Positions 41,914 through 49,714 of a stretch of 64,000 nt of DNA are shown piece by piece. A program made the position numbers and the translations under genes. The stretch is taken from assembly GCA_963769935.1 (NCBI GenBank), contig CAVYNY010000015.1, positions 64,001 to 128,000 on the forward strand, read 5' to 3'. The stretch's first letter is position 1; each line of letters starts with the position of its first letter. The notes under the pieces were generated by a model. The model was not told where the DNA came from, made no database searches, and saw only the letters and a list, made by a program, of their open reading frames with translations. The stretch comes from an uncultured delta proteobacterium (lineage in GTDB: Bacteria > Desulfobacterota > Desulfobacteria > Desulfobacterales > JAFDCJ01).

Positions 41914-43088
41914 TCATTTGCAATATCCGAATACGATCTCGCACAGCGCTTTTACGCCGACAACAAGTATTTCGTCGTTAAAAACATAATTGGGTGCGTG
42001 TATCGGTATCGAGGTCGCATCCTTCCTTATCATTTCCGATAAAGAGAAAAAGCCCGGGAATCTGCTCTTGAAATAAAGAAAACTCTTCACAACCCATTGA
42101 CGGCATGAAGTCATCCGTTACCATACCGGATTTAAATACAGTATTTAAGATTCCGGAAATATTGCTTGTCAGTTGAATATCGTTGTTGACAGGCGGCATA
42201 ATTCGATCATAGATTAATTCATATGTCGCGCGGGCGGCCTGTGTACAGCCTTTAGCAATTTCTTCTATTCGGGTTTGGATAAAATTGCGAACATCAGGAT
42301 CAAGCGTGCGAACAGTACCTTCCAAAGTGACGACACTTGGGATGATATTTACTGCCGTACCACCATAAATCTTTCCAATAGTAATTGCCGCTGCTTTGAG
42401 AGGATCGACTTCGCGACTGATAATACTTTGCAGTTTGGAAACGATATCTGCAGCGACAACAATCGGATCAACCGCCAAATGCGGCCATGCGCCATGTCCA
42501 GGCGTCCCAATTATTTTTAGCTTGAATATATCACTGGAAGCCAGAACGGGGCCTGCTTTGACAACTAAAACACTTTGCCTAAGTCCATGCCAATTATGCG
42601 GTGTGATGATCGCATCTACATCGGGGTCTTTTAGCCCGCCGGCCTTGATGATCTCGGCTGCACCTCCCGTGTTTTCCTCTGATGGCTGGAAAATAAATTT
42701 CACATTTCCATTGAAGTTGATCCTTATATTGCGACAGTATCTTGGCAGCTCCTAAAACGATGGTCATGTTGCCATCATGTCCGCATGCATGCATTACACC
42801 GCTGTTTTCAGAAGAATAGGAAACGCCGGATTGTTCTTCAATGGCCAAGGCATCCAGGCAAGCTCGTAATGCAATTGTTGATCCGGCATTTTTCCCGTGC
42901 AAAATGCCAATGACACCGGTTCCGCCTATGCCGGTCGTCACCTCAAGTCCCAGATTCTTCATATAGCCTGATACTTTCGAGGCCGTTTGAAACTCTTGGA
43001 AGCCGAGCTCCGGTTTTCGGTGAAAATCTTTCCTGATATTTATTAGTTCATCTTTAATTGAACCTAGTTTTTCATCAACCTTTTTCAT
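41914..43088 (-). pseudogene. M20D amidohydrolase with two +1 frameshifts (~42715, ~42022)
   Basis: HRKPELGFQE, MHACGHD, FQPSEE, GHGAWPH, MGCEEFS, IHAPNY spread over three frames. Confidence 0.85.
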
Positions 43089-49098: not shown

Positions 49099-49416
49099 TC
49101 AGGAGAATCGAAAAAGAATTTCTTCAAAATTTTTTACTCTTTCTCCGTAAAACTCGATCCCTTCGTCTTTAAGCATTTTTATTTTTTCCTGAATAGCGGC
49201 TCCCGATGTCTTCCCCTTAAATCCCCCAATCCGACCGGATGTGGCAACAACCCGGTGTCAGGGAACCTCGGGCGCATAGGGGTTTCTTTTCATAGCCTGA
49301 CCGACCCCCCGATAGGCTCTGGTCCCCAGAGCATGGGCAATCTCTTTATAGGTCGTTACCCGCCCTTTAGGCACCTTCCTTAAAAAATCGTACACTTTAT
49401 CGGAAAAGGTTTTCAT
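49099..49416 (-). CDS. ogt: O6-alkylguanine-DNA alkyltransferase (MGMT/Ogt C-terminal domain), predicted selenoprotein (Sec53)
   Basis: MKTFSDKVYDFLRKVPKGRVTTYKEIAHALGTRAYRGVGQAMKRNPYAPEVP-U(TGA 49260-49258)-HRVVATSGRIGGF...LKDEGI...RFS*; GAGGAGG/GGGAG RBS; SECIS-like hairpin. Confidence 0.85.
49226..49244 (-). promoter_or_regulatory. Bacterial SECIS-like hairpin
   Basis: CCA-C-ATCC-GGTC-GGAT-TGG; G-led apical loop begins 22 nt after the UGA. Confidence 0.7.
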
Positions 49417-49496
49417 TTCTCCCTGCCTCCTCGGTATGTTTATAATAAATTAAAATATTTCGTCTTTCCGCTCTATTGATTCCCGCTCCTTTTGAT

Positions 49497-49560
49497 TAAG
49501 ACCGTTTCAAAGCCGTTTTTAAGGCATTTCATACGCAATGTCAATTACTTACCGCGACCC
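49497..49560 (+). repeat. ~64-bp dispersed repeat, copy 1 (copy 2 at 53048-53111)
   Basis: TAAGACCGTTTCAAAGCCGTTTTTAAGGCATTT..GCAATGTCAATTACTTACCGCGACCC. Confidence 0.8.
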
Positions 49561-49714
49561 CAGCCCCCGCAGTCCCCGGAAAATAACTTCATACCACAAG
49601 CCTACTAAAGTCTTCGCTTAAAGGCGAGGGATTTTCTCCCATTCTCCGCATGGGACATTAAATTACGCTTCCAGCCTGCGATCAAGGGGAACCGATCCTG
49701 AACGACGCTTTTTC

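Follow-up and report, generated by a model that had tools for sequence, protein, structure and literature searches.

A short alkyltransferase gene with an in-frame TGA

The window, that is, the whole 64,000-nt stretch analysed here, carries on its minus strand an open reading frame of 105 codons (49416–49099, −) that begins with ATG and is preceded at a distance of 9 nt by a Shine-Dalgarno-like AGGAGG (49431–49426, −), as the first-pass annotation had described. Purine-rich stretches lie 5′ of the ATG in most related loci according to our neighbourhood comparison. The frame contains a single internal stop, a TGA at codon 53 (49260–49258, −) in the context V-P-*-H-R-V-V, which is the position of the catalytic Cys in aligned homologues and agrees with the earlier claim of a sole interruption at this residue. 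The terminal stop codon is likewise TGA (49101–49099, −), for which recoding is not expected; a second copy of the gene in the host genome has TAA at the same codon.

When read through, the product matches PF01035 with an E-value of 3.7e-27 over positions 2–81 of the 81-position profile, and TIGR00589 (ogt) with 74 bits against a cut-off of 46.4. Profile, PDB and fold matches assign it to the O6-alkylguanine-DNA alkyltransferase (AGT) family, with PF01035 as its only domain. The MGMT/Ogt domain had initially been called complete. This is correct for the C-terminal catalytic and DNA-binding domain, whereas the N-terminal domain is absent: the frame begins three residues before the PF01035 match, with an in-frame stop and the Shine-Dalgarno-like sequence upstream, the close relatives are mostly 104–107 amino acids long, and two-domain AGTs among the PDB and fold matches align through their C-terminal halves only. 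It had been overlooked that the protein stands alone as a single domain of the size of an ATL.

The TGA is no assembly error, because contigs from two of four independent runs (X1 and X3) span it and agree with TGA, without any difference at that site, and because it recurs in the second genome copy. Promoter, terminator and Rfam scans at the gene remained at chance level. A metatranscriptome contig covers the gene together with its flanks and is therefore no proof of expression.

Upstream of the gene, a repeat of ~70 bp at 49494–49568 has six other copies in the host genome, and a hairpin-containing stretch at 49606–49661 has one; we take the latter to resemble an IS200/IS605 end. Independent contigs contain both in other surroundings as well, and neither matched an Rfam family. 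Elsewhere in the window, an amidohydrolase-like gene (41978–43088, −) is split over two frames, possibly by an assembly indel. No conserved operon partner emerged, the largest true neighbour cluster comprising 6 of 66 loci. Three genes with a Cys codon at the active site (L046, L051, L077) are arranged divergently from a polA-like gene.

The TGA is shared by related genes and followed by selected sequence

Our genome scan confirmed 101 relatives, the best 80 of which were used for site counts. Among these 80 loci the active-site codon is TGA in 57 and Cys in 22, the motif is deleted in one, and TGG does not occur. The 57 TGA loci represent 56 genomes besides the host genome. Together with seven of the Cys loci, all TGA loci form one close group, labelled mostly as Desulfobacterales, Desulfatiglandales or deltaproteobacteria; one TGA locus on a 1.8-kb contig labelled Bathyarchaeota (L035) is probably misbinned. 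Searching metagenomes with a pattern that left third codon positions free added at least 119 loci. Among the 119 matches listed, 116 have TGA, three Cys and none TGG, a ratio that does not stand for a family-wide frequency because the search pattern favours this clade. Homologues with the same TGA, proposed earlier as a check, are thus found in both collections, and TGG alleles in 0 of 199 loci (best 80 of the 101 genome relatives plus the 119 metagenome matches listed).

For estimates of selection we used 56 TGA genes and six Cys genes, all colinear, having dropped four sequences with Ns (L082), an upstream stop (L085), short length (L088) or a frameshift (L089). In the TGA genes, dN/dS is 0.07 for codons 2–52 and 0.19 for codons 67–103, compared to 0.14 in the six Cys genes. 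The coding sequence past the TGA is under purifying selection; the downstream half, which had been called intact, is functional. The frame stays open for at least 48 further codons in 91 of the 94 metagenome TGA genes with enough sequence, again among the matches listed.

The gene is patchily distributed. It was found in 9 of 301 genomes of the class, the host genome included, from six families, with TGA in 10 of 10 matches; five genomes of the same genus yielded no TGA-bearing PF01035 match. The natural Cys alleles show 77–87% identity, and the six Cys genes fall into three groups among the TGA genes in the tree. Repeated reversion from Sec to Cys is not claimed, as the AU test did not reject the alternative of one Cys clade (p-AU 0.122). 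The search for viral copies returned only two weak matches of 22 amino acids.

In two genomes we came across a 3′ fragment of a different alkyltransferase with P-TGA-H-R (L272:404–523 and L273), located directly 3′ of a radical-SAM-like gene. It could be the remnant of a second Sec lineage, of which a 40-aa query run with no positive control found 0 instances in 251 genomes of the order.

A predicted SECIS hairpin with an invariant core

The hairpin CCA-C-ATCC-[GGTC]-GGAT-TGG lies at 49244–49226 (−), exactly where it had been proposed: a 21-nt spacer separates the UGA from the loop GGUC, the first G of which is the 22nd base after the UGA, and the upper stem has 4 bp. The core ATCC-GGTC-GGAT occupies 49240–49229, with the loop at 49236–49233. 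According to the published model of bacterial SECIS elements, the spacing is 16–37 nt, the loop has 3–9 nt with a G in its first two positions, the upper stem has at least 4 bp and the energy limit is −7.5 kcal/mol (PMC13188914). The present hairpin lies within these values for its spacer, the length of its loop, the position of the G and the upper stem (PMC13188914). Its energy is −5.2 kcal/mol for the 19 nt alone and −7.4 when constrained, just short of the model's −7.5; the mean local MFE over 56 TGA genes is −8.0. Folding z values of 0.03 to 1.42 in four folds are no better than chance, and the unconstrained MFE of stretches of 81 and 101 nt corresponds to another structure. We therefore discarded folding energy as proof of a SECIS, since it is not significant.

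The evidence for the hairpin is instead conservation at synonymous sites. All 56 TGA genes have the same codons 60–62 (TCC GGT CGG), which take the first three places when the 44 degenerate sites are ranked by conservation. For codons 58–64, pS is 0.106 in TGA genes versus 0.444 in Cys genes. The 12-base core is present in all 57 TGA loci, in four of the seven Cys loci within the clade and in none of 12 outgroup Cys loci, and among the distinct metagenome sequences in the matches listed it is found in 99 of 100 with TGA versus 0 of 3 with Cys. Conservation of the hairpin, which had been put forward as a further check, was thereby borne out. Because the core is invariant, it offers no covariation in the form of compensatory changes; the outer pairs are partly kept, and in 7 of 56 TGA genes the outer A-U pair is no longer a standard one. 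Across the whole genome, GGUN hairpins were not enriched after TGA relative to TAA and TAG controls.

The host encodes selenocysteine machinery

In the host genome we identified selB as a frame of 636 amino acids, a tRNA-Sec gene and two selD genes with in-frame TGA. The selA gene scored over the cut-off but carries three single-base insertions, so that of the four components the earlier check had named, selB, selC and selD were found directly and selA in frameshifted form. Of 34 host genes tested, two were frameshifted, namely selA and its neighbour. The frameshifts on contig C22 lie at 678–681 kb, 721–722 kb and 736–738 kb and affect selA, the adjacent dTDP-glucose dehydratase-like gene and both EF-Tu genes. 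Since the neighbour and both EF-Tu genes are broken on the same contig, and selA is intact in all five genomes of the same genus, the selA frameshifts are likely assembly errors, the contig apparently containing indels.

Across the relatives, selA is over the cut-off for 50 of 57 TGA loci, the other seven lying in assemblies without detected selA, for all seven Cys loci within the clade and for 0 of 15 outgroup loci; the outgroup is mostly archaeal, where bacterial selA is the wrong marker, so that this comparison is no independent contrast. Loss of the Sec machinery as the cause of the Cys alleles was rejected, given selA in seven of seven. In three related genomes (L060, L061 and L063, also recorded as L139–L141), ~2.7 kb separate the gene from selA, with rfbB- and pyrF-like genes in between. 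We rejected a functional link to selA, as the adjacency is confined to these three.

The first-pass annotation had named three outcomes that would speak against a selenoprotein: reads with TGC or TGT, a genome lacking selABCD, or homologues sharing neither the TGA nor the hairpin. None of these occurred; TGA, hairpin and Sec machinery hold, with the reservation that selA is frameshifted in this assembly.

An ATL-shaped protein with AGT catalytic residues

Alignment A1 comprised 94 of 121 proteins, leaving out 22 in which the TGA position was read as W and five that were near-duplicate, truncated or odd. A structure model derived from A1 has a mean pLDDT of 87. Its best whole-chain match is Atl1 (Z 14.8, rmsd 2.4 Å, 99 aligned residues), and the tighter core match is human AGT (Z 13.4, rmsd 1.4 Å over 84 residues). 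All 56 TGA genes have Y23, N45, H54, R55, F66, K78 and E85, and likewise P-U-H-R together with E85, given Sec read-through; R36 is kept in 51 of 56 and replaced by Gln in five. From the alignments and the human residue numbering, we take the human equivalents of Y23, R36, N45, H54, R55, K78 and E85 to be Y114, R128, N137, H146, R147, K165 and E172. Particular to the clade are a Tyr35 that never varies and a loop after GG-F that is longer. Judged from sequence and model, the protein is ATL-shaped, yet equipped with the catalytic residues of an AGT.

We masked the active site and built a tree of 46 rows, in which the clade forms a single branch (99/98). It stands among short Cys genes from assemblies assigned to Woesearchaeota, Pacearchaeota, Aenigmatarchaeota, Methanosarcinales and Campylobacterota, and it is placed apart from the long Ogt and Ada of the host (100/100). 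The short genes in this tree were picked by similarity to the query and the bootstrap is unsettled; no donor is claimed.

Further alkyltransferase genes in the host genomes

The second copy in the host genome (C10:5580–5897, +; recorded as L108 and L270) is 94% identical, has the same TGA and hairpin, and sits in an unrelated neighbourhood. It is either a second gene or bin contamination (5.4%), which are indistinguishable. The host genome also encodes a Cys-containing Ogt and a Cys-containing Ada-type gene. Six of seven genomes with a Cys allele have no PF01035 match besides the short gene, versus 8 of 56 TGA genomes, and the Fisher p of 3e-4 for this difference overstates it, because five of the seven are Desulfatiglandales, assemblies are incomplete and some of the other matches are fragments.

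Relation to known alkyltransferases

A Sec-containing alkyltransferase family had been mentioned in the first-pass annotation as predicted from deltaproteobacterial metagenomes, and it has indeed been listed since 2005 (PMC1287953, PMC1976440, PMC13188914). CHY0809 was predicted as a Sec alkyltransferase in that year (PMC1287953), the Olavius symbiont metagenome contributed two listed sequences (PMC1976440) and GOS one (PMC2398784), and a 2016 survey reported the family in three organisms (PMC5029168, supplement). It is also named in algae (PMC7539508) and tabulated in PMC9312934 and PMC13188914, the latter calling it "predicted with high confidence". As described in print, the CHY0809 and Olavius sequences likewise have a predicted Sec in place of the catalytic Cys of PCHR, followed by a stem-loop. 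Since one locus of our clade (L084) belongs to an Olavius Delta 1 assembly, it may be this clade that was observed in 2007. Against the three organisms of 2016, we count 57 TGA loci in 56 genomes besides the host (best 80 of 101), which extends the family to at least 56 further genomes.

With E. coli Ogt and Ada-C, human AGT and archaeal OGT the protein shares the C-terminal fold, the Tyr, the Arg finger, the Asn hinge, P-x-H-R, the Lys and the Glu; it differs from them in lacking the N-terminal domain, in the predicted Sec for Cys and in a Phe for the tyrosine of GG-Y. With S. pombe Atl1 and the Vibrio and E. coli ATLs it has in common the single domain of ~105 amino acids with a C-terminal extension, but it carries Sec or Cys, not Trp, and retains the Asn hinge. 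ATLs are described as without N-terminal domain, active-site Cys and Asn hinge, E. coli ATL is reported not to be activated by a W-to-C exchange, and from AGT fusion proteins the N-terminal domain is considered "not strictly required" (PMC10779285).

Also overlooked at first was an engineered human Sec AGT that is active in E. coli (PMC4150793). This hAGT U145, which has the same alkyl-accepting Sec nucleophile, protects an E. coli ada ogt strain from MNNG and tolerates N137A, an exchange that inactivates the Cys form; it differs from the present protein in being artificial, two-domain and made by UAG suppression without a SECIS (PMC4150793). Our literature search, with few subscription journals in scope, yielded neither biochemistry on a natural Sec AGT nor a study testing a single-domain AGT that occurs naturally on its own. 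As both the predicted family and the Sec chemistry of an engineered AGT are published, the gene is no new kind of system; new here are the single-domain architecture, the breadth, the ancestry apart from the host Ogt and an annotation artefact.

A putative selenocysteine-dependent single-domain alkyltransferase

The pairing of TGA with Cys, the selection downstream, the invariant hairpin core and the Sec machinery of the hosts together support reading the TGA as Sec, and we consider insertion of Sec at position 53 very likely. SelB would read the conserved G-loop hairpin 21 nt past the UGA and Sec would enter at residue 53. The helix-turn-helix and the Arg finger would flip O6-alkylguanine out of the DNA, and the selenolate would take over the alkyl group irreversibly, so that the protein is spent, one per lesion, with Se-methylselenocysteine as the presumed product. 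From sequence and model, such a single-turnover alkyl transfer by a domain without its N-terminal partner is probable, if less certain than for a two-domain Ogt because of the stand-alone, ATL-sized architecture. A Sec-containing single-domain DNA alkyltransferase is overall the best explanation, and we hold it with good confidence. One likely advantage is that a selenolate requires less activation than a cysteine thiol, and the gene might serve as an accessory repair gene beside Cys-type Ogt or Ada.

That translation simply ends at codon 53, so that the gene is a nonsense pseudogene or yields an HTH fragment of 52 aa, is extremely improbable. The weak hairpin, the frameshifted selA of this assembly and a few decayed copies (L085, L089, L090, L271) would fit it, but the same TGA stands in 57 loci from several host families, followed by sequence under purifying selection with a hairpin invariant at synonymous sites, and the broken EF-Tu genes and selA neighbour point to assembly errors, selA being intact in five of five genomes of the genus. 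We give equally little credence to a reading of UGA as Trp, which would yield an ATL with a PWHRV motif. This motif does appear in 22 of 121 proteins (120 database matches plus the query); however, all three W proteins that could be matched to DNA have TGA there, the other 19 being unmatched, two other proteins run through a W at their usual end as expected of code-4 gene calling, TGG is absent from all 199 loci (best 80 of 101 plus the metagenome matches listed), and TGA is the commonest stop of the host genome, ending 652 of 1696 long ORFs. The PWHRV proteins in the databases (P0002, P0040, P0052 and 19 others) thus look like code-4 misreadings of TGA. Genes truncated at codon 52 or misread as PWHRV will resemble ATLs, which makes this an annotation trap.

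Other readings accept the selenoprotein and concern its task. It may act like an ATL, binding O6-alkylguanine and flagging it for UvrABC excision repair with the Sec or Cys in a minor or regulatory role, or in both modes. We regard this as unlikely, although the single domain has ATL size, the top fold matches Atl1 and Vibrio ATL cover residues 1–104 including the C-terminal extension, Atl1 is the second-best PDB sequence match, and W-to-C leaves E. coli ATL inactive (PMC10779285). Against it, every motif-bearing DNA locus has C or TGA and never TGG at the site (best 80 of 101 and matches listed), the Asn hinge as well as the GG-F motif follow the AGT pattern, the core is closer to human AGT (1.4 versus 2.4 Å), a true ATL with TGG exists as a separate gene in one carrier genome (L278), and no uvr gene is prominent among the recurrent neighbours, as judged from translations. 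Less probable still is that the selenolate mainly targets an electrophile other than O6-methylguanine, such as larger or carboxymethyl adducts, O4-alkylthymine, or methyl and metal species of anoxic sediments. Most TGA carriers do have another PF01035 gene, the short one being the sole match in 8 of 56 genomes, and the clade's own Tyr35 and longer loop after GG-F might bear on substrate; yet the base-flipping and catalytic residues are all standard, and its standing as sole match in six of seven Cys-allele genomes fits ordinary alkyltransferase duty.

A more speculative reading, which we rate as improbable, would make the protein a natural bridge between AGTs and ATLs. An ATL-shaped domain from a short archaeal-type Cys family would have gained Se in place of the aid of the N-terminal domain, with small adducts Se-alkylated, bulky ones held for excision repair, and Sec used only where a Cys enzyme serves as back-up. 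The last element derives from the sole-match counts in Cys-allele and TGA genomes (6/7 versus 8/56).

At 105 amino acids and with natural Cys alleles, the protein provides a natural system for the role of selenium in a non-redox, single-turnover reaction, and a way to test if the catalytic domain of an AGT repairs DNA on its own. The host belongs to a sulfate-reducer lineage of sediments, and the TGA is conserved in dozens of related genomes.

Other TGA-containing genes of the host

A self-BLAST of the host genome gave 45 TGA/Cys pairs, ~18 of which were judged real by eye; most of these ~18 have G-loop hairpins at 16–27 nt. From their motifs, we take the pairs judged real to include HdrA, MvhD, FdhA, Prx, MsrA, rhodanese, RnfB and hydrogenase. 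The RnfB-like Fe-S protein (C9, −; index 86173) has TGA at the Cys of an ANCGGCG motif. In a [NiFe] hydrogenase large subunit (C20:530763 onward, +; L281/L287), the N-terminal RSCGVx motif has TGA at its second Cys, with a strong 8-bp hairpin 23 nt past the TGA, and the C-terminal motif is all Cys. By hand count, 59 of 111 matches to this hydrogenase in 201 genomes of the order have one TGA in that region, and the position was confirmed in nine of ten loci, the tenth having Cys.
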